From Fidelibacterota bacterium UBA6931 (lineage in GTDB: Bacteria; Fidelibacterota; Marinisomatia; Marinisomatales; S15-B10), in NCBI GenBank assembly GCA_002448795.1, contig DKAH01000017.1:54270-118269 (forward strand): DNA of 64,000 nucleotides, written 5' to 3'. This document shows, in pieces, positions 282 through 33,669 of the stretch; position 1 is the stretch's first letter; every line of letters begins with the position of its first letter. Under the pieces are notes generated by a model, which was not told the DNA's origin, made no database searches, and saw only the letters and a program-made list of their open reading frames with translations. Both the position numbers and the translations under genes were made by a program.

Positions 282-506
282 ATGTCTGAAGTGGTCTCAA
301 GAACAGGTGTTTCGAAAGAATCCGGTTATCTGTACTACCTCGGAAAGGACGGCAATGTGTGGCGTTCTAAGATGGCACGTGCAGGAAAAGGTGGTGGCAA
401 TGCGGAAAAAGTCGCCGATGCCGGTGTATCGCGGGAGTCAGGCTATCTATACTACATCGATAAGAATGGCGATGTTTCCAGATCTCCCATGGCGAGAGGT
501 CGTTAA
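282..506 (+). CDS. Small basic protein made of two copies of a 25-aa GVS(K/R)ESGYLYY..K(D/N)G.V.RS.MAR unit; unknown family
   Basis: AGGAG at 271-275 lies 6 nt before the ATG. The repeats (aa 9-33 and 48-72) are 18/25 identical while their codons differ at many synonymous sites. A strong terminator follows directly. Confidence 0.6.
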   Translation: MSEVVSRTGVSKESGYLYYLGKDGNVWRSKMARAGKGGGNAEKVADAGVSRESGYLYYIDKNGDVSRSPMARGR

Positions 507-528
507 TAGCTGATTCTATCTGTCGACT

Positions 529-560
529 AAAAAACCCTCGGTCTCGGCCGGGGGTTTTTT
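529..560 (+). terminator. Rho-independent terminator after the mini-gene
   Basis: The 7-bp GC-rich stem CCCTCGG (535-541) / CCGGGGG (548-554) has a 6-nt loop. It is flanked by A6 (529-534) and T6 (555-560). Confidence 0.8.
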
Positions 561-629
561 GTATTGGGGTGAATCAAATTGCGCCGCTTAAATTAATCGG
601 AGAATATCTTGGTCACCTAGTGTGAGAGA

Positions 630-1262
630 TTGATGAAAATCATCTTAAGAATCCTGATCATTATTTCACTTTCTTACGGGCAAGTTGACTACAGTTCTCA
701 GGTCCAGCCCATATTCAATCAGGATTGTACCAGCTGTCACGGGGGTAGTGGAGGTCTAACTCTTAACTCTTATGAGGAGCTTATGAAGGGAGGGAATAGT
801 GGAGCAGTCATTGTGGCTGGGAACGCTACCAGCAGTCTTCTGGTGCAACGCCTCGATGGGTCTGTTACACCGAAGATGCCTCAGGGAGGCTCACTTCCAG
901 ATTCGACCATCGATCTCATCAAGCAGTGGATCAATGAGGGAGCCATAGAGGCTGTGTCTATCACCGAAGAAGAACTACTGCCTTTGCTGTTTGAGGTTGA
1001 TGGGAATTTTCCTAATCCATTCAACCCCCTTACCAGAATTGTGATCAGTTCCAGGACCAAAGTCGAAGGGAGGGCGATGATTACCACAGCATCGGGAACA
1101 GCTGTTTTCGACTTCGGCACGGTTCAGATGCACCCCGGAACGAATAGCCTCGTCTGGAATGGCGAAGACAATACCGGCCGGCGACTTGCATCCGGACCTT
1201 ATCTCTTTATCTTTAAGAACTCTGACCTCATCCTTTCGCACAGGATGATACTCTTGAAATAG
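630..1262 (+). CDS. Secreted c-type cytochrome domain protein (Planctomycete-cytochrome-c/PSCyt1-like) with a Por/T9SS-type C-terminal sorting domain
   Basis: Signal peptide; VQPIFNQDCTSCHGG..GGLTLNSYEELMKGGNSG..MPQGG..WINEGA with CXXCH at 726-740. The C-terminus has FPNPFNPLTRI...LASGPYLF...ILLK. An ATG at 633 is the likelier start. Confidence 0.8.
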   Translation: MMKIILRILIIISLSYGQVDYSSQVQPIFNQDCTSCHGGSGGLTLNSYEELMKGGNSGAVIVAGNATSSLLVQRLDGSVTPKMPQGGSLPDSTIDLIKQWINEGAIEAVSITEEELLPLLFEVDGNFPNPFNPLTRIVISSRTKVEGRAMITTASGTAVFDFGTVQMHPGTNSLVWNGEDNTGRRLASGPYLFIFKNSDLILSHRMILLK

Positions 1263-1292
1263 GTTTAGGATTTCCTTAACGCTAGTCTACAT

Positions 1293-1709
1293 ATGAAAAC
1301 CGAGGTTCGGTTCTTTTCCGCTCTGGTCAGTCTAATAATTATGTTTGGATGTATTGATATGGGAAGTGAGCCGAAAGAGGTCCCTCCTGATGGCTCTTCG
1401 GTTTTTGCGGATGACATTCAGCCCATTTTTGATATCAGTTGTGCCCTTTCGGGGTGTCATGTCTCGAGTGCCTTGAGACCGCCTGACTTGAGGGATGGGC
1501 AAAGCTATTTAGAGATTGTCGATGTTGAGTCGTCAGGTTTTGCGCCGCTTAAGCTCGTCAAACCAACGAAGCCTGAAGAATCGGTTATCTACTTGAAAAT
1601 TTTAGGCGATCAATCTACCGGTTCACGAATGCCTCCTGGCGGGACACTAAGTGATGCGAGCATTCTTGCCATACGCACGTGGATAGAGGCAGGGGCAAAG
1701 AACAATTGA
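1293..1709 (+). CDS. Lipoprotein with a PSCyt1-like domain carrying a variant CX4CH motif
   Basis: Lipobox MFGC (Cys20). IQPIFDISCALSGCHV (1440-1460) ... MPPGGTLS...IRTWIEAGA parallels the preceding gene. Confidence 0.7.
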   Translation: MKTEVRFFSALVSLIIMFGCIDMGSEPKEVPPDGSSVFADDIQPIFDISCALSGCHVSSALRPPDLRDGQSYLEIVDVESSGFAPLKLVKPTKPEESVIYLKILGDQSTGSRMPPGGTLSDASILAIRTWIEAGAKNN

Positions 1710-2815
1710 CGACGAACCGAAAACTGTTTTATTTAATCTTCGCAACCACGATTTCGTTCGAAATTTTGATAGCTATACCCCGGTTTGCCATCAAGGAAGG
1801 GTCGTGTAACACGTGCCATGTCAATCCCACCGGCGGTGCCCTCAGGAACGATTATGCCAATCTTGTTATATCCCCCGATGAGATTGCCATGCCTAAGACC
1901 GCCTCACTTGTTCAACTCAGCGATCCCGGGCAGCTGACTGATCATCTCCGAATAGGCGCCGACCTTAGAGCCCAGTTTATTTCAGACAGTGAAGAAGCGT
2001 CGTTTTTTCCCATGCAGGCAGATTTTTACGCCCATTATGATGTTGCTGGTTTTGCTGGAATCTATGTCGAATCTGAAGCTTTGCTTGGCACCACAGAATA
2101 CTGGTCGAATGTTTTTTTGCCGTTCTTGAACAGTTTTGTGAAAGTGGGGAAATTGCGTCCCTATTATGGACTGGGATTGGACGACCACACCTCATTTATT
2201 CGTGGAGGCAATATTAAGAGGACTAAGGGCCTGGTGAAGGAAGGACTTCCGTTCTCACCGATGCGCCCGCCGATAAACGGAGCCGAAATCGGATTCTTTG
2301 GTATGAACTACAGTGTGACGGGAAGCATCTCAAACGGTTTTCTATCCGGAGAATCTGCTGAGGCGGCTTTTCTCGGGCCACCGGGCAACAGAACTGTGGT
2401 TTTAAGAGGAGAACGGTCGATCTCTAGGGGCGAGATAGACGGATTTGTCGGGGCATCTTACCTGTCCGAAGGAGAGACGTTACTGCGGGGTATTTTCGGA
2501 GGCGTTGCCAGAGGCCCTTTACTGTGGATGGGTGAAGTGGATTTAATGACCGGTTGGAGCGGCAATGTAACAGGGATGGCATCTTACAGCGAATTTGCTT
2601 GGATTGTGAGGCAAGGCGTTCACCTGCTGGCAAAATATGATTTCATTGATGAAGACATCGAAGTGCTGGAAAATGCGCTTTCAAGATTCTCACTTGGTGT
2701 TGAACTTTATCCCTTCAGTTTTTTGGAGTTCAAGCTTCAAATAAGAAAGACTACGGTGGCTGGCGGGGGAACTTCTCCGGCCGAATTTCTCTTTCAAACT
2801 CATGCATGGTTCTAA
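1679..2815 (+). CDS. Candidate fused monohaem cytochrome c / outer-membrane beta-barrel (Cyc2-like architecture)
   Basis: Hydrophobic N-terminus, then CNTCHVNPTGG (CXXCH 1805-1819). About 320 aa of alternating amphipathic strand-like sequence follows, ending in the aromatic ...FQTHAWF. A TTG at 1706 overlaps the upstream stop (TTGA) and is a plausible true start. Confidence 0.6.
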   Translation: MDRGRGKEQLTTNRKLFYLIFATTISFEILIAIPRFAIKEGSCNTCHVNPTGGALRNDYANLVISPDEIAMPKTASLVQLSDPGQLTDHLRIGADLRAQFISDSEEASFFPMQADFYAHYDVAGFAGIYVESEALLGTTEYWSNVFLPFLNSFVKVGKLRPYYGLGLDDHTSFIRGGNIKRTKGLVKEGLPFSPMRPPINGAEIGFFGMNYSVTGSISNGFLSGESAEAAFLGPPGNRTVVLRGERSISRGEIDGFVGASYLSEGETLLRGIFGGVARGPLLWMGEVDLMTGWSGNVTGMASYSEFAWIVRQGVHLLAKYDFIDEDIEVLENALSRFSLGVELYPFSFLEFKLQIRKTTVAGGGTSPAEFLFQTHAWF

Positions 2816-2827
2816 GGAGGCAGACGT

Positions 2828-3190
2828 ATGAAAAAGTTTCTTATTGTTATGGTCGCAGTGACTGCCGTTCAATCAATTCGAGCGCAGAATGTGAAAAACC
2901 TTAAAGTTCTCTCCTTCAAAACAAAGAAGGAGACCATGGATTATATGAAGAAGACCATCGCGCCGTCTCTAGGGGTGAAATGTTCCTACTGCCACAATGT
3001 TCGCGATTTCCCATCAGATGGAAATAAATACAAAGAAATCACGAGAGAGATGATACTTATGACTGAGTGGATCAACAAGAATACGATCAAGTCGCTAAAG
3101 TATGAACCTGTTACCTGCTGGACGTGTCATCAGGGGAACATCTATCCACCGCGTTACAAGGGCGACAAGGGTGAAGGGGACAAAGATTGA
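2828..3190 (+). CDS. Small secreted dihaem c-type cytochrome (reaction-centre cytochrome c subunit-like, PF02276-type)
   Basis: Signal peptide; CSYCHN..DF.SD (2981-2995) and VTCWTCHQG (3116-3130). GGAGG lies upstream of the ATG. Confidence 0.75.
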   Translation: MKKFLIVMVAVTAVQSIRAQNVKNLKVLSFKTKKETMDYMKKTIAPSLGVKCSYCHNVRDFPSDGNKYKEITREMILMTEWINKNTIKSLKYEPVTCWTCHQGNIYPPRYKGDKGEGDKD

Positions 3191-4575
3191 GTATGGAGTC
3201 TATGTTTCCTGAAAAAGCGATACTGTATGCAGAGGAGAACAGCGGTCGTTTCCTTCAGGAGCTGAAGGAACTGGTTGCGATCCCTAGCGTGTCCAGTGAC
3301 TCGAACCATCTTGGCGATATGAAAGTTTGCGCCGATTTTGTGGAGGGTGCCATTTCAAGCATCGGATTTGATCGAGTGCAAATGGTGGAAACGAAAAAAC
3401 ATCCCATCGTTTACGGTGAGTGGCTCGGCGCCCCAGGCGCCACAACCGTCCTACTTTACGGCCATTACGATGTCCAGCCCGTTGATCCACTTGAGCTCTG
3501 GGAGACACCGCCTTTTGAAGCTTCAGAGCGGGACGGCCGTCTTTACGGTCGAGGTACAGTAGACGACAAGGGGCAGTTTTACCTTCATCTTAAGGCGATG
3601 GAGTCGTGGATGCGGTCGGCTGGTAGTCTCCCGGTAAACATGAAAGTGATCATTGAAGGTGAGGAAGAGGTCGGTAGCGAAAGCCTCGAACCGTTTCTTG
3701 ATGAAAATCGAGAAATGCTAGCGGCGGACGTGGCGGTCATTTCCGACACAAGCATGATCAAGAAGGGGTGGCCGTCCATCACCTATGGTCTCAGAGGGAT
3801 CGCTTATTTCCAGATCGGTCTGAAAGGGCCTTCTCAGGATCTTCACTCCGGTATTTTTGGTGGTGCGGTGAAAAATCCCATTCACGCCCTGATAGAAATC
3901 ATTGGCCAACTTAAGGATAAGAACGGCCGCATTGCTATTCCCGGAGTCTATGATGATGTTGTTGAACTTACATCTGAAGAACGCAGGGTTATGGCCGAGC
4001 TCCCTTTTGAAGAGGAGTTATTTCTCGATGAGGTGGGCGCTCCTAAGTTAAGTTGGGAAGATGGTTACACTCCCCTGGAGAGTTTATGGTGCCGCCCTGC
4101 CTTGGATGTAAACGGGATTTGGGGAGGGTTTTCTGGAGAGGGTTCCAAGACAGTGATCCCCTCAGAAGCCCACGCCAAGGTGAGTATTCGGCTGGTCCCG
4201 AATCAAGAGCCGGACATCGTCGGAAATCTACTAGAGACATATGTTCAGGAGATCGTTCCGCCTGAAGTGGAGGTTACGATACAGAGAATGCACGGCGGCC
4301 GCCCTTTTCTTGGAGATCTTTCTAACCCTGCCTTTTCCGCGGCGGGGAGAGCTCTGGAAAAAGGATTTGGCGCAAAGGCGGTCTATATTCGGGAAGGAGG
4401 CTCAATCCCATTCGTTCGGAATATGACAGAAACACTTGACTTGCCTTGTCTACTGCTCGGATTTGGCCTTCCCGGAGAAAACGCTCATGCCCCGAATGAA
4501 TGGATCGACCTTGAAAACTACGCCCTCGGGACACAGAGCGCTATTCATCTTTACCACGAATTGAGTTTGATGTAA
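3187..4575 (+). CDS. M20 family metallopeptidase (dipeptidase/deacylase-like)
   Basis: YGHYDVQP, GRGTVDDKGQ and EGEEEVGS motifs. TTG at 3187 or ATG at 3193. Confidence 0.85.
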   Translation: MSMESMFPEKAILYAEENSGRFLQELKELVAIPSVSSDSNHLGDMKVCADFVEGAISSIGFDRVQMVETKKHPIVYGEWLGAPGATTVLLYGHYDVQPVDPLELWETPPFEASERDGRLYGRGTVDDKGQFYLHLKAMESWMRSAGSLPVNMKVIIEGEEEVGSESLEPFLDENREMLAADVAVISDTSMIKKGWPSITYGLRGIAYFQIGLKGPSQDLHSGIFGGAVKNPIHALIEIIGQLKDKNGRIAIPGVYDDVVELTSEERRVMAELPFEEELFLDEVGAPKLSWEDGYTPLESLWCRPALDVNGIWGGFSGEGSKTVIPSEAHAKVSIRLVPNQEPDIVGNLLETYVQEIVPPEVEVTIQRMHGGRPFLGDLSNPAFSAAGRALEKGFGAKAVYIREGGSIPFVRNMTETLDLPCLLLGFGLPGENAHAPNEWIDLENYALGTQSAIHLYHELSLM

Positions 4576-4672
4576 GAGAGGTCTGAAAATCTTCAGCGGT
4601 GTTTTCCGTTTTCATTTAATCTTTTTTCTCGGCTCTATTCTCTGGCCTGAATTCGATGTCCGATCCCAACCG

Positions 4673-5881
4673 GTGGTAAGTACAATTACCATCGAAGGGA
4701 ATCACATCACTAAAGAATACATTATTCGAAGAGAAATTCAGCACCAATTGGATGTTCCCTTGGATTCGACCATGGTCAAAGCGGATCGGGATCGAATAGA
4801 TAATCTGTCAATCTTCACCAGTGTAAAGTGGGAAGCTGAATTACTGGATGACGGGTCCGTGGAGCTGGTTTTTGTTGTTATAGAAACCTGGCGGATTTGG
4901 CCAGGCGCAGCTCCTATGTATTGGGAAGATAAAGGTTGGTCCTTCTTCGGCGCGGTGCGTGTGCTCAACTTCAGAGGTCGAAACCAAGCATTCGCCATGG
5001 GTGGCGCGGTTGGGGCATTGGATATGTTTGGATTCCAGTTTTCCGATCCATGGTTCGCAGGTGATCACATCTCATTTTCGGGCGATATAGGTCGGGTGAT
5101 TTTCCAGCACCCTTTCCTGCCTTACGTCCAGATCACAGATTCATTCGAAGCGATTCTTGGCAGATGGTTTGGCTACAAATGGAAAGTGCGGGTAGGGTTC
5201 GAACTTGAACGTAAACAGTTCGAGGGTGAAACCGATACGCTCACATACAGTTATGTGGCACCCCAGGGGTCTGTTGCCTACGATACAAGAGATATCTACC
5301 GAGATCCGTCAGAGGGTATCTCTGTTCTTCAGCAGTTCTATGTCATGTTCCACAGTTCGGATTCAAATCGGAACCGATTGGTCTGGACACAAACTGTTGG
5401 TAGCTACTGGTCACCAGTTAAAGGGAAGAATAAACTGACTCTTGGATTGGGACTGATGTCCATTGCCACTTTCGGCGCCCTTGATGAGGTCTGGATCAAT
5501 TATTTTGGTGGTAGCTACAGTATCAGAGGTTGGTCAGTTCCATCTCGGGAGGATTTTCTAGACCCTGGCCACTCATTCCGTTTCGGAAACCAGGAATTGG
5601 TGTTTTCCGCGGAGGCACGAAAGACGATTGTATCTTCCTCCTCAGTTTCAGCTCTTTCATTAAATGCTGAGTACGGCCTGGCAGTCGTCGGATTTATCGA
5701 TGTGGGGGTTACTTCCTTAGAGCTTTCAGATCTTTTTGTGAGTGATCCGCTAATAGGAATGGGTTTCGGAATCCGCGTCCCCGTATTTGGGAGTTTTCTT
5801 CGCATAGATTATGGTTGGGCCTATTATGGCGGGAAAGCGTACGGAACTTCATTGAATATCGGTTCTGGACAGAAGTTTTAA
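4673..5881 (+). CDS. Omp85/BamA-TamA family outer-membrane protein with one POTRA-like domain
   Basis: ITIEGNHITKEYIIRREI is POTRA-like, and the beta-barrel tail ends ...GSGQKF. The in-frame upstream region (4571-4672) encodes a signal-peptide-like stretch without a canonical start (see findings). Confidence 0.75.
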   Translation: MVSTITIEGNHITKEYIIRREIQHQLDVPLDSTMVKADRDRIDNLSIFTSVKWEAELLDDGSVELVFVVIETWRIWPGAAPMYWEDKGWSFFGAVRVLNFRGRNQAFAMGGAVGALDMFGFQFSDPWFAGDHISFSGDIGRVIFQHPFLPYVQITDSFEAILGRWFGYKWKVRVGFELERKQFEGETDTLTYSYVAPQGSVAYDTRDIYRDPSEGISVLQQFYVMFHSSDSNRNRLVWTQTVGSYWSPVKGKNKLTLGLGLMSIATFGALDEVWINYFGGSYSIRGWSVPSREDFLDPGHSFRFGNQELVFSAEARKTIVSSSSVSALSLNAEYGLAVVGFIDVGVTSLELSDLFVSDPLIGMGFGIRVPVFGSFLRIDYGWAYYGGKAYGTSLNIGSGQKF

Positions 5882-7337: not shown

Positions 7338-7850
7338 TCAATCGGAATGGGAGAGAGGGGACCTCTCATGTTTGAGGAGCCACTTTTTCATCGGCAATCC
7401 ACCGCCGAAGCCACCAAGGGTGCCGTCGTGAGCGATAACACGGTGGCACGGTATAACAATTGGAACGGGGTTTCTACCGTTGGCACTTCCCACTGCCCGG
7501 ACCGCCTTGGCATTGTTCATCCGCTCCGCAATCTCTTTGTAAGAAGCTGTCTTTCCGAAAGGAATCTCCGCTACCTTCTTGAGCGCTTTTTCTTGAAACT
7601 GTGTCGTTCTAAGATCAATGGGAAAAGTGAAATTCTCACGAACACCGTCAAAGTATTCCCGAAGCTCGTTCAGTTCATCTTGAAGGGCGTTGCTGTTTTC
7701 GACCATCTCTTCTTTGGGGAAGATATCCAAAATCCACTGGAAAAAAGTGCTATCGTTTTCAGACTGCAGACTGATCTTACATACGCCCAGGGATGTCTTG
7801 GCAATGAGAAGTTTTCCGATGGGGGTATCTAGAGAGGCGTAAGTGATCAC
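7338..7850 (-). CDS. ogt: Methylated-DNA--protein-cysteine methyltransferase
   Basis: IPCHRVI active-site motif; about 170 aa. Confidence 0.85.
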
Positions 7851-9994
7851 GCCCGGAGGTCTTCCGGCCGTATGGGGAGCTTTCGAATACGCTTACCGGT
7901 CGCGTCGAAGATGGCGTTTGCCACTGAAGGGGCGACGGGGGGGAGTCCCGGCTCACCAGCACCGCTGGGTGGTTCATCACTCGCGACAATATGAATCTCC
8001 ATCTCTGGTGATTCATCGATTCGTAGCAATTCAAAATCGTGGAAATTTGACTGTTCCACGGCACCTTTCTTAATAGTAATCTCACCCTTGAGTGTGGAGG
8101 TGAGGCCGTAGACGATGCCGCTTTCCATCTGCATTCTGATGCCGTCCGGGTGGACTGGAAGGCCGCAGTCGATTGCGCCCACAATTCTATCCACGGTGAA
8201 AGAACCGTCACTCTTTACTGTAACTTCAGCGACGTGGGCGGCCCAGGAGCCGAATGATTCATGAACAGCGATTCCTCGTCCCCGGCCTTTTCCAAGTTTT
8301 GTACCCCAGCCCGATTTCTCGGCGGCAACATTCAGGACACCGAGATGGCGAGGTGAATTCTTGAGTAATTTAACTCGAAAGTGGTAGGGGTCTTCGTCAG
8401 CTAGATGGGCCAGCTCATCCACAAAGCCTTCGTTGGCAAAGCCGTTCTGGGAGTTGTATACCGCGCGCCACCACCCCACAGGCACCTTAGTGTTCGTCAT
8501 TATATAGTCTATATGAAGATTAGGAATTTCATAAGGTAGGTTCCTAGCACCACTGACGGCGCTTTTGTCTAACTCTCCTTTTGTGAATTTTTGCGGGCTG
8601 CGTTGAGCTGAAATAGACGGTGCGATGATTCGATGAGACCAGCTTTTCGCTTGATTCTTTTTTGTCAAGGCTGCGGAAAGTTTGTGAATACTCGTAGGAC
8701 GAAAAAAATCATGCGCCATATCTTCTTCTCGCGTCCACAGCATTTTCACAGGCTTGCCTATTTTCTGAGAAATCTCCAATGCATCAGTAACGTAATCAGC
8801 AAATAACCTCCTCCCAAAACCGCCTCCAAGGAGGGTGACATGTACTTTCACTTGCTCTAGAGGGATACCGAGATGCTCAGCTGCTTTAGTCTGGACACGC
8901 TGAGGAACCTGCGTAGGAACCCAAATTTCGCATTTGCCATTACCGACATGCGCCACACAGTTCATCGGCTCCATCGTTGCATGATGGGTAAAAGGCACTT
9001 CATACTGCACCTCAAAAACAGAGGCCGCTTTCTTGTGAGCTGTTGTAACGTCGCCCTCTTTGCGGGCTATAACAGCTTTGCCACTGCCGCCCTTCTTTTC
9101 CATGAATGATTTGATCCGGTTACTATCCCAATTTGCGAAATCACCGTGATCCCATTCAATGTCCAATGCACGTTGTCCCTGGATTACTGACCAGGTGTTA
9201 TTTCCTACGATAGCGACACCTTCTTCTATGGCAAAAATATCGGTGACTCCAGGGATACCCTTAGCTGAATTAGAATTGAAAGATTTTGCCTTTCCTCCAA
9301 ATGTGGGACAGTGGATAACTGTGGCGTAGAGCATGTCCGGAATTCGAATATCGATTCCGAACTGTGCTTTGCCATTCGCCCTGGAGGGGGTATCCTTTCC
9401 AGGCATAGATTTTCCTATAAAATTGAAGTCTTCAGGATCTTTTAGTTTTGGATTGGTCGAAAGTGAATAACTTGAAGCCATTTCAGCTAATTCTCCAAAA
9501 GTAAACTGACGCTTAGTCGGGAGATGAATAATTTTACCTTTTGTAGCTATACATTCCTCAATAGTAACCCCCCATTTTTTTGCTCCCGCTTTTATCAATA
9601 CTTCTTTAGCCGCGGCGCCAGTTTTTCTTAAAATAGTAAATGATTCTCTGATCGAACCACTGCCTCCGGTACCTTGATTTCCATATTTTTGTTCATTAGC
9701 ATCTGCTTGAAGTACGGTTATTTGGCTCCAATCAGCTTCGAGCTCGTCTCCTAGTATCATTGGAAGAGAGGTTCTAACATGCTGGCCCATCTCAGACTTT
9801 GCTACTGTAATGACAACGCTATTGTCAGGGTGAATGGCGAGAAACGCGTTTGGTTCGAACGGCTGGGAAGGTGCAAGCCCTGCTGCCACGAGGCGTTCTT
9901 TCGCCGGTAGGAATACGCCAATCATCAACCCGACTCCGGCAGTTGAAGAAACCTTCAGAAAATCACGGCGGCTAACGGAAGATTCAGGCATCAT
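7847..9994 (-). CDS. Molybdopterin-binding subunit of an aldehyde oxidase/xanthine dehydrogenase-family oxidoreductase (IorB-like)
   Basis: Tat signal [10 protein letters not shown]. The length and conserved blocks are typical of the IorB/aldehyde dehydrogenase large subunit. It is coupled to the 2Fe-2S subunit gene upstream. Confidence 0.8.
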
Positions 9995-10449
9995 ATTTCC
10001 TTTGCTGCTCTATGGATCGCCTTCCGAATCCGCTGGTAGGTGCCACAGCGGCAAAGGTTCATCTTCATGGCGGTGTTAATATCCTCGTCCGAGGGGTCGG
10101 AATTTTTTTCCAACAGTGCCGCTGCTGTCATAATCTGACCAGACTGACAGTAGCCGCACTGGGGGACCTCTTCGGCAATCCACGCTTGCTGAAGAGGGTG
10201 AGAAAGATCAGTGGAGAGACCTTCGATGGTAGTAATCTCCGAGCCGTCGACGTATTCCACTGACGTCATGCATGCCCGTGTCGGTTCGCCATCAAGGTGA
10301 ATTGTACAGGTACCGCAAAGCCCACGGCCGCATCCAAACTTGGTTCCGGTGAGTCCCAACTCATCCCTGAGCACCCAGAGCAATGGCATATCTTCAGCAA
10401 CATTGACGTTCTGCTTCTTGCCATTGATTGTTATTGAGTACCGCGCCAT
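9991..10449 (-). CDS. (2Fe-2S)-binding small subunit (IorA-like)
   Basis: [10 protein letters not shown] and CGYCQSG...CRCGTY cluster motifs. Confidence 0.9.
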
Positions 10450-20908: not shown

Positions 20909-22261
20909 CTACTCGTCCGGAATAATGTTCTCATCCACAGTGTTGGAGAGACGGTACCGGACAATCCGCGAATTCACCGTATCACAGATGTAAATAATTC
21001 CCCGCTCATCTACTGCCAGTCCCCTTGGAGCGTCAAGAATGCCCGGTCGTTCCACCGTGAGGAAGGTATCCACCAGGGCAGAATCACCATCGGAGTAAAC
21101 CCAGATAGTGGTATCAACGAGGGCCTCCTTAACCCCTGCCTTCATGAAAAAACTTCCATTAGAGTTGAAAATCTGAATCTCATCGGCGAGAGTGTTGGCA
21201 ACGTAAACCTGCTGTTTCTGATCCACCGCTATATCCGCCGGTTTTAAGAACCGCCACAGATCCATGATGTCATGAGATCCCTGTTGGAAGACAGAAGGGT
21301 AGGTGGTGTATCCACCCGCGGAGACAGGGCGGATTTTGTGTACTGAAAAGAATTCCCCCGCCTGGACGTAATAGATGTTGCCGGCAAAATCGACATCAAG
21401 AGCGGAAGGCCTATTCACCGTGCCTGCTCCCGTGCCGTAGCCCGTCACCGTGTGGCCGAAAACACCTCTGTGGGTCCACACCTCCTCGCCAGTGGTTAGA
21501 CGAATAAGTTGCGACCGTTCAAAGTTGATCCGGACGATGCGGTTGAGTGCGTTGTCCGTGACGTATATGTAGTCGCCGTCCGCCGCGGAAATTCCTGAAT
21601 AGAGGGATTGGCTACTGCTGTAATAGACATCCTTTAAGGACGTCGCATTCACGCCGGCGTCAAAGAAGAGATGTGGGCTGGAAAGAGAATCGATAAGGGG
21701 CTGTTGCGACGACCAGACAGCGTCACCCATCTGCCATTCACCCCCATGAAGCTTTACATACCAGTCGGAAGTCCCGGCAGATACGGACACCTCCTTTCCT
21801 GATGCGATATTTACGAACGTGGCACCGGTCATCACTTCCGCAATTTTATTCTGCCGCCAGAGCTGGTTCCACCGTATGACACGGCTGGAGCCGTCGATCA
21901 TGAAGATATTCATTTTCTGGTCTATGTCCATATCGATGGGAGCAAAGGAATCGCCGGAGTGGTCTTTTATGTTCACGAGGTCATCAAAACCGCTCAGGAC
22001 AGTCCCATCCTGCTTCAAGACAAAAACCGATCGTGCCGCCGAGTCGGCTACAAAGAGGCGTCCATCCGGTGCGATGGAGATCTCAACAGGAGAGGAAAAA
22101 CCCAGGCTGGCATCCCATATGGGATTCATAATCAGATAGGTTGTGTCTCCGGCAGCAAATTCAACGTTCTCATTGATGGTGGCCGGAAGAGGCATTTTCT
22201 CCACACAGCCGCTGACAATTATCAGAAAACAGCCCGCTATAGTCAAAAGCCAGTTTCTCAT
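20909..22261 (-). CDS. NHL-repeat beta-propeller lipoprotein
   Basis: Lipobox VSGC. There are about six NHL-like blades (e.g. IYVTDNALNRIVRI, VYVANTLADEIQIF, IYICDTVNSRIVRY). The ATGA overlaps the upstream gene. Confidence 0.6.
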   Translation of the reverse strand: MRNWLLTIAGCFLIIVSGCVEKMPLPATINENVEFAAGDTTYLIMNPIWDASLGFSSPVEISIAPDGRLFVADSAARSVFVLKQDGTVLSGFDDLVNIKDHSGDSFAPIDMDIDQKMNIFMIDGSSRVIRWNQLWRQNKIAEVMTGATFVNIASGKEVSVSAGTSDWYVKLHGGEWQMGDAVWSSQQPLIDSLSSPHLFFDAGVNATSLKDVYYSSSQSLYSGISAADGDYIYVTDNALNRIVRINFERSQLIRLTTGEEVWTHRGVFGHTVTGYGTGAGTVNRPSALDVDFAGNIYYVQAGEFFSVHKIRPVSAGGYTTYPSVFQQGSHDIMDLWRFLKPADIAVDQKQQVYVANTLADEIQIFNSNGSFFMKAGVKEALVDTTIWVYSDGDSALVDTFLTVERPGILDAPRGLAVDERGIIYICDTVNSRIVRYRLSNTVDENIIPDE

Positions 22262-23271
22262 CAGAACTCCACCGCCAGGCTGAGGCGAGTTGGATCAGAA
22301 AGGTGGATCATGTTAGTGTAAGCAAAATCTACCCGCAGCTTGGCAGGGCCCACAGGAATGTAGAATCCGGCACCGATAGAAAAATCTTCCTCTTCCACAT
22401 TGATCTTATACCCGCCGCGAAGGGCCAGTGTGTTGAGGAATATATATTCCCCTCCCGCCACAATATTCTCTGCGTTATCCACTGGATGGTTGAGCTGAAG
22501 GGATACGGTTAACGAGTGATTTTGAGATTTCACAATCTCCATAGCGCTCCCCACCCGGAAAATGGTTGGCGGTGAGAACAGCTCAAATTCCGAATCGATG
22601 ATTACTTCATCGCCAGTCTCGCGATCAAGGATGAACCGCTCGTAACTTCCTTCGGGCCTTGCCTGTGGACCGAAATTGGAGAGGACTGCCGAGAACCGCA
22701 GTGTCCGAAAGCCTGTCCAGTAGAAGGTTCCCACATCAAGGAGCATGGAACGCATTCGATGGTCGGCAAGGTTCTCCTCTACATGCTTGAGCGTAAGGCC
22801 AAAGCTGAAACGGTCCGACATTCTTACGCTGTAGCTTAGGCCGACAAACCGATCCTGAAAAATGAAATAGTTTCCCGTGCCGTGGGGCATGTATTCGGTG
22901 GTCTCCTGCATGGGCGCCATGTGGAGAATCCCAGCTGATATACCCAGGTAATGGCTTCCGGCCAATTGACGCGACATACCCAGAAAATCGTAGGTGATGT
23001 CAGCAGGCCATTGAATACGGGAGCTGGACACCTGTGTTCCGGAAAGCTGGCCGATAGCAGCGGGATTGTAGACCAGGGAAGATGCATCCTGATTCAGTGC
23101 TACAACTGCTTCGGCCATTCCCGCCGCTCTGGCGCTGGCACCAATCTTCAAAAAGGTAAAGACTGACGTTCCCACCCGCTGACCGCCTAGGATGGGAAAG
23201 AAATTCTGCTGTCCGGAGAGAGCCAGAGGGAACAGTGTGAGGATGAGGATTTTCCGATAATGTTGATTCAT
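22261..23271 (-). CDS. PorV/PorQ-family (FadL-like) outer-membrane beta-barrel
   Basis: GTSVFTFLKIGASARAAGMAEAVVALNQDASSLVYNPAAIG matches the family N-terminal signature as I recall it. The protein ends ...SLAVEF. Confidence 0.6.
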   Translation of the reverse strand: MNQHYRKILILTLFPLALSGQQNFFPILGGQRVGTSVFTFLKIGASARAAGMAEAVVALNQDASSLVYNPAAIGQLSGTQVSSSRIQWPADITYDFLGMSRQLAGSHYLGISAGILHMAPMQETTEYMPHGTGNYFIFQDRFVGLSYSVRMSDRFSFGLTLKHVEENLADHRMRSMLLDVGTFYWTGFRTLRFSAVLSNFGPQARPEGSYERFILDRETGDEVIIDSEFELFSPPTIFRVGSAMEIVKSQNHSLTVSLQLNHPVDNAENIVAGGEYIFLNTLALRGGYKINVEEEDFSIGAGFYIPVGPAKLRVDFAYTNMIHLSDPTRLSLAVEF

Positions 23272-26051
23272 CAGAACATCACCTGAAGTCCGACGCTGGC
23301 CGTTCGGGGCGTTCGAAAACGTGATGGATCAATATTCGGGTTGGGTGTCTCGATCATACTGTATGGGATGATGACGCCTGGATTATAACCTCTGCCGGTG
23401 AAAGGATTTATTCGGCGGGGAATGCGCTGATCCAGAAGGTTCTCCACTTCCGCCAACCACCGGAGATTGACACCACCGACAGTCATCTTCTTGTATAGTT
23501 TTAGGTCCACGTTTGAGACCGGGTCCTTAGCAAGATAAAAGTAGGGCTTGTCATCTTCAACGGTACCGATGTAGTAGGCGACGCCGTCCACCTCGATGAG
23601 GCCATCGGGATATTCACGGGTGCCGGGAATAGACCGCGTGTAGCGTCGCCCGCTTTCGAACTCAAACCGCCATGACATTCCCCAGCCGGAGGGATGATCG
23701 TATGAGATATTGGCGAAAGTCTGAAGTGGCTTGTCCCATTGGAGGAAAACCTCATCCAGAGGCTTCTCCCGAAGCTGGCCCGACTGAACAAGGAGGTTAT
23801 CATCAGGATTGGAGCTTTTCCCGGTGGCAATGGAATAGTTGAAGTTTACATCGGCGTACCAGTTGGCCAGCAGCCGGCTCCTCAGAATCATTTCGATTCC
23901 TCGGGCTCTGGCATAATCAGCATTGAGGTACATGAGGAATCGGAGGTGGGCATATTTCGGATTTGAAGGTGTGATGCTCTGGGAAGTCTCGTAGTCGAAC
24001 ATGTCTTTCCAATAAGCTTTCAGTTCAAGCACCTGGTCTTCGCTAAAACGGTGTTTCAGCCCGATTTCATACTGAACTGTTGTTTTCGGGCTCAAGTTTG
24101 GATTCCCAAAAACCTGGTAGGTGGAAGGGGCTATAGTGTTCAGTTTTGCGTAGACGTACTGAAATGAAGGAAGCTGAGAAAAGTGACCGTAATAGAAATA
24201 GAGTACGTCATTGTCTGTTACAGGATGGGAGATGCCGACTCGCGGAGAAAGCCTTGCTTTTCCACGATAGCCCATGAATTCAAATGTCTCTTCCATGAAC
24301 AGTTCCCGAGCCTCGTCCGTGATAGTAACAGCATCTGGATTGGCGATAGCCTCTTCCACATATTTTCCGGGAAACCAGTAGTCGTAGCGGAGCCCGAGGT
24401 TTGCTGTCATCCCTTCAAAAACGATCCTGTCCTGAACGTAGAAGGCACCGAATAGTGTTCTTGCGCGGTAGGCATCGTAGTTAATGCCGAAGCCTGTTGT
24501 ACCGGTCCACGGCTCATCGATATCCACCACTTGAATTTCTGTGGATGTGGCCTCCACCCCTGCTTTAATCTTGTGTCGATTCAGGGTCTGGTAAGTCCAG
24601 TCGAAATCAAGGCGTGTGTTGTCACTGGAAAGATCATACCACTCCGGCGAAAAGCCCGTGTCGTAAAACTCGTCTCCGTAAGTGATGCGCACATTCCCGT
24701 CCCTGTCGCGGATGATGTAGTTGACAGGCTCGATGTCAAGACGCTCTCTGTAGTCGGTCCAGTGGAGGTCCTGAACCGCACTATGTTCCAATGTGAGGAA
24801 TTGCCCGATGGTCAATTCATAAAAGTTTCGGGGACTGAGGGTGTGAGTCCAGTTAATCTTCACGAGACGAGATTCCCGGGTGATGGTGTTATAATTGTCA
24901 AGAATCTGACTGTAGGCGTAAGGGAAATAGGTGGTGGAAAAAGCCCTAGGCATGAAGAAGCCCTGATTGATATTCAGTGAAATGTCGTAGGAAGCCGACA
25001 GCTTCTTCAACTCGTCTGGTTGCCACGACAGTTTGTAGAGAGCGTGCCAGTCATTGTTCTCCCGGGGAGCCAGGTTACCAAGCAGGGTGTCCGCTCTTTT
25101 TGCGGACAGTCCCGCCGGCAGACGCCAGTTCCGGTGGGGATAGAGCTGCATGGCTGTTGGGAGGTGTGAATCAGTGATCTTGCCGTAGGCGTTGGCGAAG
25201 AAGGAGAACTTGCCCGGAATGTCGAGACCCAACCGTGGTGCCATCAATTCGAGGAGTGGCGAAGGGCCTCCGAGGTTCACCTCGAGTCTGTCGCTATTGA
25301 AGTGATCAAAAGCTCCGGGAGCCGCTCCCCAATGATCACTCAGGTATTTCAGACTCCCTTCAAATTTGTCCCGCCCTTCCTTGAGCCGAATGTTGATGAC
25401 CCCGGACATAGCCTGGCCGTACTCGGCATTGTAGCCACCGGTGATAATTTCCAAGTCTTGGATGCTCTCTGGGTTGATAAACAGGTTTCCTGAGTAGCCT
25501 GAGAGAGGATCCTTAATTGAGAGTCCATCGATGACGTACAGGCTCTCATCAATCCGGCCGCCGCGAATGTGGATTTCGTTGTTAACCTTCGTAACCCCTA
25601 CCTGATCGGCGAGAATGTCCTCCACACTGTTGACAATTCTGTCCTCAATGTCATCGCTGGTAAGTTTGGTGATAGAGGCAGTTTCATCAACATCAAAGAG
25701 CGGTTTCTTACCGAGGACCACCAACTCTTCACCCAATGCGAGGACCGTTTGTTCCAGCTCGAAATCTACAGTGGTGGTTCGCTCCGCTTCCACCGTTACG
25801 CCTGTTCTGAGGATCACTTTGTAGCCGATCATGGAGACTTCCATATCGTAGCTACCTGCTGAAACATCTGTTATACGATAAAGGCCGTTACCATCGGAAG
25901 CGGCGCCGTAATAGGTCCCCTTTACCATCACGTTGACACCGGGAAGAGGCTCTCCAGTTTCACTGTCCGACAGCAGGCCGGTGATTGTCCCTTTCTCCTG
26001 CGCTGAGAGGGGAAGTACTAGCAGAAGTATCGTCAATAGCATACGCTTCAA
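23271..26051 (-). CDS. TonB-dependent receptor-like outer-membrane barrel with a CarboxypepD_reg domain
   Basis: GLLSDSETGEPLPGVNVMVKG...GLYRI, a plug (IHIRGGRIDESLYVIDGLSIKDPLSG), a long barrel and terminal ...VGLQVMF. The TTG start overlaps the upstream stop (TTGA); an alternative ATG is at 26042. Confidence 0.8.
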   Translation of the reverse strand: MKRMLLTILLLVLPLSAQEKGTITGLLSDSETGEPLPGVNVMVKGTYYGAASDGNGLYRITDVSAGSYDMEVSMIGYKVILRTGVTVEAERTTTVDFELEQTVLALGEELVVLGKKPLFDVDETASITKLTSDDIEDRIVNSVEDILADQVGVTKVNNEIHIRGGRIDESLYVIDGLSIKDPLSGYSGNLFINPESIQDLEIITGGYNAEYGQAMSGVINIRLKEGRDKFEGSLKYLSDHWGAAPGAFDHFNSDRLEVNLGGPSPLLELMAPRLGLDIPGKFSFFANAYGKITDSHLPTAMQLYPHRNWRLPAGLSAKRADTLLGNLAPRENNDWHALYKLSWQPDELKKLSASYDISLNINQGFFMPRAFSTTYFPYAYSQILDNYNTITRESRLVKINWTHTLSPRNFYELTIGQFLTLEHSAVQDLHWTDYRERLDIEPVNYIIRDRDGNVRITYGDEFYDTGFSPEWYDLSSDNTRLDFDWTYQTLNRHKIKAGVEATSTEIQVVDIDEPWTGTTGFGINYDAYRARTLFGAFYVQDRIVFEGMTANLGLRYDYWFPGKYVEEAIANPDAVTITDEARELFMEETFEFMGYRGKARLSPRVGISHPVTDNDVLYFYYGHFSQLPSFQYVYAKLNTIAPSTYQVFGNPNLSPKTTVQYEIGLKHRFSEDQVLELKAYWKDMFDYETSQSITPSNPKYAHLRFLMYLNADYARARGIEMILRSRLLANWYADVNFNYSIATGKSSNPDDNLLVQSGQLREKPLDEVFLQWDKPLQTFANISYDHPSGWGMSWRFEFESGRRYTRSIPGTREYPDGLIEVDGVAYYIGTVEDDKPYFYLAKDPVSNVDLKLYKKMTVGGVNLRWLAEVENLLDQRIPRRINPFTGRGYNPGVIIPYSMIETPNPNIDPSRFRTPRTASVGLQVMF

Positions 26052-27604: not shown

Positions 27605-27623
27605 GTTACATAGCAGATGTGGA

Positions 27624-27640
27624 GCCCCGAAGATCGGGGC
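27624..27640 (-). other. Intercistronic GC hairpin between the cargo genes and the lipoprotein/TonB block
   Basis: GCCCCGA-AGA-TCGGGGC (7-bp stem) lies in the 51-nt gap. No T-tract follows on the transcribed strand. Confidence 0.35.
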
Positions 27641-27655
27641 CCCGCACAGCTTACT

Positions 27656-30325: not shown

Positions 30326-30347
30326 TTTTTGTTGCTCCTTTTTTCTG

Positions 30348-32522: not shown

Positions 32523-32668
32523 TTGTGCACTTTCTCAATCCATTAAATAATACTCTCACCCAAGCCGATAGAGTAGAAGGAAATTACCAATCGGCAGGAG
32601 AGGAATCAACTTCATTAGCGCCACGTTTCAACTTTGTTCACTGTAGCGGTGTGTGTAGTTTGTAATTC

Positions 32669-33667: not shown

Positions 33668-33669
33668 CG

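Follow-up and report, generated by a model that had tools for sequence, protein, structure and literature searches.

Cyc2 is the main genetic marker from which microbial iron oxidation is inferred in genomes and metagenomes, with Acidithiobacillus ferrooxidans Cyc2, Mariprofundus Cyc2PV-1 and Leptospirillum Cyt572 as examples; its clusters 1–3 are those of McAllister 2020 and Keffer 2021. One gene in a 64,000-nucleotide stretch of DNA (the window, to which all coordinates refer) encodes a protein of apparently similar layout, a lone CXXCH followed by a porin-like barrel, and raises the question of whether this is a Cyc2, a relative of Cyc2, or a separate fusion of haem and porin. The host belongs to SAR406/Marinimicrobia, a group counted among the most abundant bacteria of the deep, dark ocean and of oxygen-minimum zones, and usually treated as plain heterotrophs. 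As argued below, the gene probably encodes an outer-membrane 16-strand porin with a fused N-terminal c-haem peptide (the haem-porin), belonging to a sister family of Cyc2.

The haem-porin and its family

The gene and its parts, with the evidence on which each assignment is based, are as follows.

1706..2815, +: fused monohaem cytochrome / 16-strand outer-membrane porin (ORF, homologues, AlphaFold, hhalign)
1706..1774, +: signal peptide with n-region TTNRK, h-region LFYLIFATTISFEILIA and predicted cleavage after LIA (read from the sequence)
1772..1849, +: haem-binding N-terminal peptide AIPRFAIKEG-SCNTCH-VNPTGGALRN (conservation in 240 relatives, profile match to Cyc2)
1946..2812, +: predicted 16-strand beta-barrel, residues 90-378, with aromatic C-terminal signal HAWF (AlphaFold/DSSP, Foldseek, profile match)
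2006..2017, +: FPMQ motif in strand 2, M112 being a candidate axial haem ligand (conservation)
2156..2272, +: long loop between strands 5 and 6, residues 160-198, at the position of porin loop L3 (AlphaFold model)
2180-2212, +: DDHTSFIRGGN within the strand 5-6 loop (conservation in alignment A1 and 240 relatives)
2801..2812, +: C-terminal H-A-W-F (H375 98% conserved in 240 relatives)

Read from a GTG codon, the open reading frame (1679..2815, +; stop at 2813-2815) specifies 378 aa ending in ...THAWF, and a start at TTG 1706 gives 369 aa with a TTGA overlap with the stop of the upstream gene. The first-pass annotation had left the choice between these codons open. TTG 1706 is preferred, since 369 aa agrees with the length of orthologues P0004, P0005 and P0006 (367-369 aa) and creates the TTGA overlap; the first residue of P0005 is L, so its start was called from a non-ATG codon. 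The mature protein is identical in either case. The hydrophobic segment LFYLIFATTISFEILIA stops 10 residues upstream of the first Cys, as originally described, and the signal-peptidase site, A-x-A followed by [IL]PRFA, is consistent across the homologues of a Marinimicrobia alignment (A1, 33 members), confirming the proposed signal peptide. The equivalent region of Cyc2 has the same layout, A-x-A and then IPxFAR.

CNTCH (nt 1805-1819, residues 43-47) is the sole CXXCH of the protein, contains both of its Cys residues and is directly followed by VNPTGGALRN. It is kept in 33/33 A1 members and in 240/240 full-length relatives, 235 of which have exactly one CXXCH. At typical Cys and His frequencies the probability of a chance CXXCH in 378 aa is estimated to be in the order of 1e-3, and a generic porin with a chance CXXCH was rejected because the motif is invariant. 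C43, C46, H47, G52 and R56 do not vary at all among the 240 relatives (100%), and P50 is kept in 97%, as against 65% for T51 and 72% for G53; the PTGG motif is thus constant, or nearly so, at its Pro and first Gly and variable at its Thr and second Gly. This haem-bearing N-terminal extension, 57 residues long, precedes the barrel, and the haem peptide has pLDDT <50 in the AlphaFold model.

The model as a whole (pLDDT 75.5, pTM 0.74) contains 16 DSSP strands, with pLDDT mostly 80-94 in the barrel. All segments that had been read as strands by eye coincide with modelled ones: LRIGADLRAQF falls in strand E90-102 and FYAHYDV in E107-122, GAEIGFFGMNYSVTGS covers E199-207 and E211-218, and FSLGVELYPFSFLEFKLQIRK covers E333-346 and E349-360. 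The barrel and its aromatic HAWF terminus, both recognized at the outset, therefore stand, but not the barrel's supposed size of ~320 aa, since residues 90-378 amount to about 289 aa. OprP (2o4v) is the best PDB fold match (Foldseek E 1.9e-10), and OprO (4rjx, 4rjw) is also within the top six; OprP/OprO, OmpU, OmpF, PorB and Omp32 match at E 1.9e-10 to 1e-7 and TM about 0.5-0.55. These porins share with the model 16 strands and a long strand 5-6 loop at the position of constriction loop L3, whereas OprP/OprO and general porins, unlike the haem-porin family, have no haem peptide. Neither the haem-porin nor the A1 profile matched any PDB sequence, solved porins included (E<=10), the window protein had no Pfam porin match (E<=1), and Pfam Porin_O_P was touched by one of the 33 A1 members (E 0.054). 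The modelled likeness to known porins is one of fold only.

Several barrel residues are highly conserved. In FPMQ, M112 is found in 95% and Q113 in 90% of the 240 relatives, and M112 may act as an axial haem ligand. Within the strand 5-6 loop D168, D169, H170, R175, G176, G177 and N178 are invariant in A1, and D169 (90%), H170 (95%) and R175 (98%) are nearly so among the 240; DDH is present in one of 90 Cyc2 proteins. An H-x-[WFY]-hydrophobic terminus is found in 220/240 family members versus 0/90 Cyc2 proteins.

Relatives are numerous: phmmer recovered 171 homologues, and a search with the profile yielded 2,252 clusters at 50% identity. Those that are named belong to Fidelibacterota/Marinimicrobia, Ignavibacteria, Gemmatimonadota, Nitrospirota and Deltaproteobacteria. 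Every source-named member among the matches listed is labelled 'hypothetical protein', and no Pfam or NCBIfam family was found for the window protein, all 33 A1 members and the 10 distant relatives scanned, a blank that says nothing on kinship with Cyc2 because bona fide Cyc2 proteins are also unmatched. The family signature consists of CHxNPxGGxxR, FPMQ, DDH in the strand 5-6 loop and a C-terminal H-x-W-F, and its median length is 372 aa, versus 449.5 aa in the Cyc2 set described below.

Partner genes

The haem-porin is flanked by genes for cytochromes, which the first-pass annotation had missed as conserved partners.

282..506, +: 74-aa ORF with two GYLYY..K.G.V.RS.MAR repeats and no signal peptide, first gene of a putative operon
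633..1262, +: monohaem cytochrome of ~209 aa with a PSCyt1 domain, CTSCH at 726-740 and a type IX secretion C-terminal sorting domain
1293..1709, +: 138-aa PSCyt1-like lipoprotein monohaem cytochrome, lipobox Cys20 at 1350-1352, CALSGCH (CX4CH) at 1440-1460
2828..3190, +: 120-aa secreted dihaem c-type cytochrome, kin of reaction-centre PufC, CSYCH at 2981-2995, CWTCH at 3116-3130

An ORF of 74-75 aa occupies the position equivalent to that of 282..506 in L006, L008 and L132. The 633..1262 protein matches Pfam PSCyt1 at 4.8e-09 (over the cut-off) and, on its C-terminal part, FlgD_ig at 8e-05; it has an NPFNP-type tail and weak PorU/PorZ C-terminal matches, and PorV and other Por_Secre_tail proteins are encoded within the window. 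Because of its type IX sorting domain this cytochrome is probably displayed at the cell surface, and it was found in the closest relatives only (L001-L003). The gene for the lipoprotein cytochrome overlaps the haem-porin start. In its alignment (A2) C50, C55 and H56 are invariant, the haem motif being CX4CH in the window and L004 and CXXCH in L006 and L008; orthologues match Pfam PSCyt1, and a similar lipoprotein adjoins distant haem-porin family members in L131, L134 and L136. The dihaem cytochrome matches Pfam CytoC_RC (1.4e-16) and NCBIfam c_type_nonphoto (82.5 bits, cut-off 70), and both CXXCH motifs together with M40, M75 and M78 are invariant in its alignment (A3).

This arrangement recurs across the ten gene contexts compared. 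The dihaem cytochrome lies directly 3' of the haem-porin in seven, including all five from Marinimicrobia, the PSCyt1-like lipoprotein cytochrome adjoins it in seven, and a cupredoxin in two; a gene for a cytochrome bd-like oxidase comes after it in L131. Overall a cytochrome or cupredoxin partner is adjacent in 9/10 contexts, the remaining one (L135) having housekeeping genes around and no redox partner near the haem-porin. In Acidithiobacillus cyc2 is followed by a dihaem cytochrome in the same order. Gene overlaps and short gaps suggest that the haem-porin is co-translated with its partners. A promoter-like site (199-228) and a terminator-like site (4595-4610) fit a single operon at 282-4575, but sites of these kinds are no more numerous than in shuffled sequence, and neither of the two is above chance.

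Relation to Cyc2

Cyc2 is described as 16-stranded, with OprP/OprO as structural templates, and its published criteria (Keffer et al. 2021, PMC8406198) are a single N-terminal CXXCH after a signal peptide with AXPXFAR[Q/K][T/Y] just upstream, PXL ~4 residues after CXXCH, a length of at least 365 aa and mostly at least 400 aa, a ~16-strand OprO/OprP-like porin, and a blastp match at E<=1e-5 with any representative of clusters 1-3, besides a score over the calibrated cut-off of a FeGenie Cyc2 cluster HMM and either Fe(II)-oxidising activity or a haem potential that allows electrons to be taken from Fe2+. Comparison was made to 90 full-length proteins carrying the published motif, obtained by scanning a genome collection with the back-translated motif and including Mariprofundus, Sideroxydans and Acidithiobacillus proteins; being motif-selected among the loci listed, this set is a sample rather than the published tree, and cluster 2 (Leptospirillum, Tenderia) was not knowingly included.

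The window protein has the single N-terminal CXXCH after a signal peptide and the predicted 16-strand OprO/OprP-like barrel, and narrowly exceeds the length limit with 369 aa (TTG) or 378 aa (GTG), but lacks the PXFAR[Q/K][T/Y] motif, PXL and the blastp link. Its peptide AIPRFAIKE agrees with the Cyc2 motif in A, P, F, A and K, with I in place of R and E in place of T/Y; PXFAR[Q/K][T/Y] is found in 0/240 family members, 109 of which keep AxPxFA. CxxCH-x4-PxL also occurs in 0/240 and CxxCHxNPxG in 201/240, the window protein reading CH-VN-PTGGALRN. No blastp match at 1e-3 connects it to any of the 90 motif-defined Cyc2 proteins, which here stand in for the Keffer references, nor was there a link at 1e-5 even in a 330-sequence database; the best cross-family blastp edges reach 41-45 bits, and the family and Cyc2 form separate components at 1e-10.

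At the level of profiles the two are related. An hhalign comparison of A1 with the 90 Cyc2 proteins gave Prob 98.0 and E 2.6e-13 over 310 collinear columns, versus no solved porin at E<=10. Sub-cluster profiles scored 91.3% (Sideroxydans/Zetaproteobacteria) and 95.5% (Acidithiobacillus). The mature N-terminus matched the Cyc2 AIPxFARxxGxxCxxCH peptide at Prob 97.7 and score 48, twice that of other CXXCH contexts (20-24), and a barrel-only superfamily profile matched the Cyc2 barrel at Prob 97.3 and E 2.5e-11 over 237 collinear columns, reversed controls of the profile comparisons giving 0.1-0.15% (0.1% for the barrel-only test). The A1 barrel alone was not significant (Prob 55% against the whole set, 9.5% against sub-cluster 0), so that homology of the barrel rests on transitivity via the wider family. 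Intermediates, among them P0144 and L126, can be aligned over their full length with scores of 51-56 bits: an HMM built here from the 90 Cyc2 proteins aligns with the entire P0144 at 55.6 bits, and the family HMM matches 90/90 Cyc2 proteins, at best with 51.5 bits. The window protein itself scores 9.5 bits with this Cyc2 HMM, by its N-terminal 30 residues alone.

Both families thus share the mature N-terminus A-[IL]-P-x-F-A, x3, G, x2, CXXCH at equal spacing after the signal peptide, a single haem, 16 strands with OprP/OprO as templates, a C-terminal aromatic residue, and a gene often followed by that of a periplasmic dihaem cytochrome. They differ in that Cyc2 has R-[Q/K]-[T/Y] and, after the haem, a PXL/FG..F..NGY segment, in place of which the haem-porin has CH-x-N-P-x-G-G-x-x-R-N-x-Y-G; in length, the haem-porins being ~75 residues shorter at the median; in barrel near-invariants, which are FPMQ, DDH...RGGN and H-x-W-F in the haem-porin and almost only glycines in Cyc2; and in partners, a PSCyt1-type lipoprotein cytochrome and PufC-like dihaem as opposed to Cyc1 (c4) and rusticyanin. 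The profile evidence shows that the haem-porin is homologous to Cyc2 in its haem peptide and, at the superfamily level, in its barrel. Since it lacks the published defining motif and the blastp link, it is on sequence grounds to be called 'Cyc2-like', not 'a Cyc2', and its family, large and unannotated, is probably a sister family of Cyc2. The first-pass view of a compact, ~370-aa Cyc2-like cytochrome-porin of a distinct clade is upheld by median length, profile homology and a signature of its own; its statement that this is the defining architecture of Cyc2 agrees with the shared fused haem-porin layout.

The case for a genuine short Cyc2 deserves consideration even so. Such an Fe(II) oxidase would admit dissolved Fe2+ to the pore and oxidise it at the haem, cytochromes in the periplasm and a terminal oxidase then receiving the electron. 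Architecture, fold templates and the position of the haem peptide are all as in Cyc2, profile homology extends to all of its sub-clusters, and the order of porin and dihaem cytochrome is that of Acidithiobacillus. Moreover, relatives adjoin a cupredoxin and a dihaem cytochrome with two Cytochrom_C domains, or a bd-like oxidase, neighbourhoods resembling the composition of known iron-oxidation operons (PMC10654088). Nevertheless, the defining motif is absent from the window protein (PRFAIKE) as from all 240 family members, PXL is missing, and the families separate at the blastp level. The conservation of M112, DDH and H375, lacking in Cyc2 barrels, hints at a different active-site arrangement. 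To our knowledge the family contains no cultured iron oxidiser, and on balance we regard this interpretation as rather unlikely.

Proposed working and its alternatives

As a member of the sister family, the haem-porin is most likely an outer-membrane electron conduit, and together with its cytochrome cluster looks like a wire by which electrons could cross the outer membrane. The host is a diderm, and the window also carries BamA, Skp, LpxA/C/D and type IX secretion genes. The protein would be exported by Sec, receive its haem in the periplasm and be inserted as a barrel by BAM. Its 57-residue haem peptide, presumably too small to fold alone, may pack into the half of the barrel that faces the periplasm. 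There the sixth ligand, and perhaps a site for a cation, could come from the strand 5-6 loop and M112, H170 or H375; in view of the model, haem position and sixth ligand are guesses. The dihaem cytochrome in the periplasm would then exchange electrons with a partner outside the cell, which may be a reduced metal in solution, for example Fe2+, or the surface cytochromes. Judged by the analogy to Cyc2 and to the pairing of cyc2 with cyc1, electrons are somewhat more likely to flow inward, an external donor being oxidised, than outward; Fe(II) is the most economical guess for that donor.

Flow in the opposite direction would carry electrons of respiration from the dihaem cytochrome through the haem-porin to the lipoprotein and type IX surface cytochromes, and on to metal oxides on particles or to humics, in a miniature analogue of MtrCAB. 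Consistent with this, the window cassette includes both a type IX-tailed monohaem cytochrome and a lipoprotein cytochrome, surface-exposed partners for which the oxidation of a dissolved ion inside a pore has no need; in L006 two ~470-aa proteins encoded a few genes upstream have faint Pfam matches to multihaem and MtrC-like cytochromes, and in L136 the adjoining cupredoxin bears a type IX tail. However, the surface cytochrome is restricted to the closest relatives, the lipoprotein could face either the periplasm or the cell surface, characterised homologues work inward, and a lone haem in a barrel of 16 strands cannot by itself reach across the membrane (an argument of PMC8406198), all of which leaves outward flow a possibility of low probability. 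The cassette does resemble MtrCAB, MtoAB and PioAB in that a barrel, a lipoprotein or surface cytochrome and periplasmic cytochromes are encoded together. In those systems, though, a 26-strand barrel sheathes a separate decahaem protein (PMC8406198), unlike the 16 strands, haem within the barrel polypeptide and mono- or dihaem partners found here, and no sequence relationship to the haem-porin was seen.

A role outside respiration, be it in sensing, in detoxification of peroxide or superoxide at the surface or in the uptake of iron or haem, to which the adjacent cytochromes would have only a loose connection, appears improbable. SAR406 genomes reportedly include many that are predicted to be auxotrophic for haem (bioRxiv 10.1101/2021.01.11.426183), the DDH/His cluster could bind metal for transport, and the family member surrounded by housekeeping genes has no redox partner. 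Yet covalently bound haem is not transported haem, redox partners accompany the gene in nearly every context and seem to be co-translated with it, and the homologous Cyc2 is an electron-transfer protein. Convergent fusion of a haem motif onto an ordinary porin unrelated to Cyc2, the independent invention that the first-pass annotation had offered as an alternative, could appeal to the fast divergence of porin barrels, to the non-significant Marinimicrobia-only barrel profile and to the mutually exclusive signature motifs, but is very improbable and was rejected because of the haem-peptide and barrel-only matches to Cyc2, full-length alignment of intermediates likewise arguing against it.

The literature searched contains no paper that links Cyc2 with Marinimicrobia, SAR406, Marinisomatota or Fidelibacterota, or Marinimicrobia with extracellular electron transfer, and no description of SAR406 as an iron oxidiser. 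We tentatively suggest, as a speculation of rather low probability, that SAR406 possesses a conserved, near-core conduit of lipoprotein or surface monohaem cytochrome, haem-porin and periplasmic dihaem cytochrome, in which the Met, Asp-Asp-His and His residues form a metal redox site absent from Cyc2. If true, pelagic heterotrophs would have a direct part in cycling iron, or else manganese, iodine or humic substances, by redox reactions outside the cell, and surveys relying on Cyc2 markers would overlook a whole family: the published screen (motif and blastp at 1e-5) would exclude it, because it is without the defining motif. A sister family of this extent, conserved in SAR406 with its partner cytochromes, would likewise add a dominant lineage of the deep ocean to the known holders of outer-membrane electron conduits. 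Because its interior residues are strongly conserved, the family may be better suited than Cyc2 for studying ligation of a single haem and substrate contact within a 16-strand barrel, and at three to four genes and ~2.5 kb the system is small enough to express and test.

The haem-porin gene and its family

The haem-porin is a secreted protein in which one conserved haem-attachment site, at about mature position 11, is fused to a predicted 16-strand barrel, and it is encoded together with secreted and lipid-anchored c-type cytochromes. Its ORF, 1679..2815 (+), yields 378 aa from the GTG start and 369 aa from an in-frame TTG at 1706, which overlaps the preceding gene's stop codon as TTGA. The TTG codon is preferred because 369 aa agrees with the lengths of the closest orthologues (P0004, 369 aa; P0005, 368 aa; P0006, 367 aa), and the mature protein is the same from either start. 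The N-terminus comprises a charged TTNRK segment and a hydrophobic core (LFYLIFATTISFEILIA), followed by an A-x-A type site and IPRFA; the CNTCH motif (nt 1805-1819, residues 43-47) holds the protein's only two cysteines, and the chain ends in QTHAWF. The sequence details of this ORF reported in the first-pass annotation (CNTCH, ends and segments) were all found where it had placed them. A contig of assembly GCA_002346965.1 matches the window at 100% identity.

A phmmer search retrieved 171 relatives, those with a source name being 'hypothetical protein' entries of Candidatus Marinimicrobia or Fidelibacterota. Across an alignment of 33 Marinimicrobia (SAR406) sequences (A1, down to 32% identity), invariant positions surround the haem motif (C43, C46, H47, P50, G52, R56) and recur as D168, D169, H170, R175, G176, G177 and N178, and at H375. 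When 1.84 billion cluster representatives were searched with a profile, the family grew to 2,252 proteins at E<=1e-3 (of which 1,113 at E<=1e-10 and 257 at E<=1e-30), the named members of this wider family belonging to Ignavibacteria, Nitrospirota, Gemmatimonadota and Deltaproteobacteria and all being annotated 'hypothetical protein'. Among 240 full-length members the CXXCH (C43, C46, H47), G52 and R56 are 100% conserved, P50 97%, M112 95%, H170 95% and H375 98%. Conservation of the CXXCH across all 240, together with the presence of a single such motif in 235, argues that it is functional and not a chance occurrence. The barrel of the wider family conserves M112, Q113, Y117, E140, D169, H170, R175, E203, E286, D288, D324, R336, R356 and H375.

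An AlphaFold2 model built on the 33-sequence alignment (mean pLDDT 75.5, pTM 0.74) places 16 strands between residues 90 and 377, with a long loop (160-198) bearing DDHTSFIRGGN between strands 5 and 6. The haem peptide (residues 28-68) has pLDDT <50, as expected since the model was built without haem. Foldseek returned the phosphate porin OprP (2o4v, E 1.9e-10) as the top PDB fold match, followed by OmpU, OprO (4rjx, 4rjw) and other 16-strand porins; 16 strands, and exactly the OprP/OprO templates, have been described for Cyc2 (Keffer et al. 2021, PMC8406198). The outer-membrane biogenesis proteins BamA, Skp, LpxD, LpxC-FabZ and LpxA (43659-49838) are encoded in the window too, as are PorV and type IX-tailed proteins, which indicates that the organism is a diderm equipped to make a protein of this kind.

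Relationship to Cyc2

Neither the window protein nor its relatives match Pfam or NCBIfam, which cannot decide the question of Cyc2 kinship because genuine Cyc2 proteins match neither: motif-bearing Cyc2 of Mariprofundus (L012), Acidithiobacillus (L034), Sideroxydans (L096) and Ignavibacterium (L103) drew nothing from Pfam-A or NCBIfam release 20 at E<=0.1, so that Cyc2 has no model in standard annotation pipelines. Published criteria for Cyc2 are a minimum length of 365 aa, CXXCH, a porin and a blastp match at 1e-5 to cluster representatives, with AXPXFAR[Q/K][T/Y] upstream and PXL downstream of the CXXCH (Keffer et al., PMC8406198). A motif-selected Cyc2 sample was collected by searching one genome per GTDB species with the back-translated motif P-x-F-A-R-[QK]-[TY]-x3-C-x2-C-H, which gave at least 120 loci and 90 full-length proteins from Mariprofundus, Zetaproteobacteria, Sideroxydans, Gallionellaceae, Acidithiobacillus, Nitrospira defluvii, Ignavibacterium, Ralstonia and many Acidobacteriota, Gemmatimonadota and Bacteroidota.

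Profile-profile comparisons with Cyc2 (reversed-sequence controls: Prob 0.1-0.15%)
A1 vs 90 Cyc2, full length: Prob 98.0%, E 2.6e-13, 310 columns (query 14-353, target 25-408)
A1 vs Cyc2, mature N-termini: Prob 97.7%, E 2.5e-12, 18 columns, score 48, 56% identity
A1 barrel vs barrel of all 90 Cyc2: Prob 55%, E 1.2e-4, 227 columns
A1 barrel vs Cyc2 sub-cluster 0 barrel: Prob 9.5%, E 0.0034, 252 columns
240-sequence superfamily barrel vs Cyc2 sub-cluster 0 barrel: Prob 97.3%, E 2.5e-11, 237 columns
Marinimicrobia profile vs Nitrospira/Ignavibacterium/Marinilabilia 'ARKY' sub-cluster: Prob 97.0%
Marinimicrobia profile vs sub-cluster containing Acidithiobacillus: Prob 95.5%
Marinimicrobia profile vs sub-cluster with Sideroxydans, Gallionellaceae and Zetaproteobacteria: Prob 91.3%

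Against the score of 48 for the mature N-termini, unrelated CXXCH contexts scored 20-24. The barrel match is weak from the narrow Marinimicrobia alignment and clear from the superfamily profile; the barrel link between the Marinimicrobia clade and Cyc2 is thus transitive, running via the wider family. A Cyc2 HMM aligned over the full length of family member P0144 (55.6 bits), and the family HMM matched 90/90 Cyc2 proteins. The highest of these scores, 51.5 bits over the full length, belongs to a 400-aa protein of Bacteroidetes MAG FW215_bin.12 (L126). This protein carries the strict Cyc2 motif (MPNFARKYGLACTSCH) and is the strongest candidate intermediate linking the families. The family profile had no match at E<=10 among PDB sequences, OprP, OprO, OmpF and similar porins included. 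Together with the Cyc2 matches this shows that the family is homologous to Cyc2 and nearer to it by sequence than to any solved porin, and bears out the earlier suggestion of a Cyc2-like protein over a generic porin.

Several features nevertheless set the two apart. In place of the PxFAR[QK][TY] of Cyc2 the window protein reads PRFAIKE, and in place of CH-x3/4-PxL it reads CH-VN-PTGG; the strict Cyc2 motif occurs in 0/240 family members. CxxCHxNPxG is found in 201/240 of the family but 0/90 of Cyc2, an H-x-aromatic-hydrophobic end in 220/240 but 0/90, and DDH in only 1/90 Cyc2 proteins. Little is conserved in Cyc2 barrels beyond glycines, unlike the many conserved residues of the haem-porin barrel, and median lengths differ (372 aa vs 449.5 aa). 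All-against-all blastp of the 330 sequences gave two separate components at 1e-10, which join only at 1e-5, via 41-45-bit edges, and the window protein had no match at 1e-3 among the 90 Cyc2 proteins. On these differences in motif, blastp, barrel residues and length, the family is filed as a putative sister of Cyc2 within the fused cytochrome-porin kind. Since Cyc2 homologues are known to occur widely, a remote sister is no great surprise; what draws interest is the size of the family, the distinctive residues conserved inside the barrel, the fixed pairing with a small lipoprotein cytochrome and the fact that a dominant lineage of the dark ocean conserves it. No paper tying Marinimicrobia/SAR406 to Cyc2 or to extracellular electron transfer was found in the literature searched, and the family would fall outside the published Cyc2 survey, since that pipeline drops sequences without the motif (PMC8406198).

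The cytochrome cassette and the direction of electron flow

The haem-porin gene and its neighbours from 282 to 5881 are tightly packed on one strand.

Genes of the cassette and its flanks
282-506 (+): 74-aa repeat protein
633-1262 (+): monohaem PSCyt1 cytochrome with type IX secretion tail
1293-1709 (+): 138-aa lipoprotein
1706-2815 (+): haem-porin
2828-3190 (+): 120-aa dihaem cytochrome, PufC-like (NCBIfam c_type_nonphoto, 82.5 bits vs cut-off 70)
3202-4575 (+): M20 peptidase
4673-5881 (+): single-POTRA Omp85 paralogue

The PSCyt1 cytochrome, with its type IX C-terminal sorting domain, is probably exported to the cell surface by the T9SS. The lipoprotein aligns with PSCyt1-type cytochromes of orthologous loci and carries the motif CALSGCH (CX4CH, 1440-1460). 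Ten distinct contexts of family genes were compared. A dihaem c-type cytochrome lies directly downstream in 7/10 (PufC-like in the five Marinimicrobia loci; in L130 and L131 a protein with two Cytochrom_C domains), and a PSCyt1-like lipoprotein cytochrome ending in W-I-x-x-G-A-x-N-N adjoins the gene in 7/10, including the distant L134 (Ignavibacteria), L131 (deltaproteobacterial MAG) and L136. A cupredoxin adjoins it in two (a lipoprotein in L130, with a type IX tail in L136), L131 further on encodes a cytochrome bd-like oxidase and more cytochromes, and only L135 lacks a redox neighbour. The downstream dihaem gene resembles the cyc2-cyc1 arrangement (PMC10654088) of Acidithiobacillus (L034), where cyc2 is directly followed by a 213-aa dihaem cytochrome.

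The sequence evidence makes it probable that the haem-porin is an outer-membrane electron conduit of the Cyc2 kind. In porins both termini are periplasmic, and the strand 5-6 loop is an extracellular loop that in general porins folds into the lumen. With this topology the 57-residue haem peptide, which would form no cytochrome fold alone, probably sits as a plug in the barrel's periplasmic half, its haem pocket probably being completed by the D-D-H of the strand 5-6 loop, M112 and H375, one of which would supply the sixth ligand; the acidic and histidine residues may also make a cation site. Electrons would pass between the periplasmic dihaem cytochrome and the outside, either a dissolved reduced metal in the pore or surface cytochromes. 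Outward transfer, which we consider the less likely direction, would suit the surface-directed cytochromes of the window and the genes near the L006 porin whose products match multihaem families faintly in Pfam; inward flow is favoured by the Cyc2 homology, the cyc2-cyc1-like order and the presence of a cupredoxin or bd-like oxidase beside relatives. For such an inward conduit Fe(II) is the most economical guess at a substrate, and a role as Fe(II) oxidase specifically is doubtful.

Further observations around the cassette and in the window

The CX4CH spacing is unusual yet recurrent in several lineages of one small lipoprotein cytochrome family (CSGGGCH in L004, CVNQGCH in L134; ordinary CXXCH in L006, L008, L131 and L136). 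The cupredoxin of L136 (2475-3143), adjoining a distant family member, has the same kind of type IX tail as the PSCyt1 cytochrome. The 74-aa ORF, which lacks a signal peptide and falls in no Pfam family, is made up of two repeats of G-V-S-x-E-S-G-Y-L-Y-Y-x-x-K-x-G-x-V-x-R-S-x-M-A-R. In L006, L008 and L132, whose porins are just 37-42% identical, a 74-75-aa ORF occupies the same site ahead of the cassette. These three loci also keep the position of the short Omp85 (402 aa, one POTRA), two genes downstream of the cassette; this paralogue might help haem-porin assembly. The complete BamA, with 792 aa and four POTRA matches, is encoded at 43659-46037 in a bamA-skp-lpxD-lpxC/fabZ-lpxA cluster. The M20 peptidase follows the cassette in the 42%-identical Marinimicrobia locus L132 (6480-7859) and with a much more distant member in L136 (5582-6961), a synteny without obvious functional reason.

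Large ORFs without Pfam match lie within 23271-34476 (26048-27604, 518 aa; 30348-32522, 724 aa; 32669-33667; 33715-34476). Their neighbours are a PorV-like protein (22261-23271), a barrel resembling TonB-dependent receptors (23271-26051) and, at 27656-30325, a protein of 889 aa that has a T9SS-type tail. A molybdopterin hydroxylase at 7847-10449 (-), with a 715-aa large subunit bearing an N-terminal twin-arginine-like RRDFLK and a 152-aa 2Fe-2S small subunit, is a periplasmic enzyme of the aldehyde/xanthine-oxidase type and is kept near the cassette in L001, L002 and L132.
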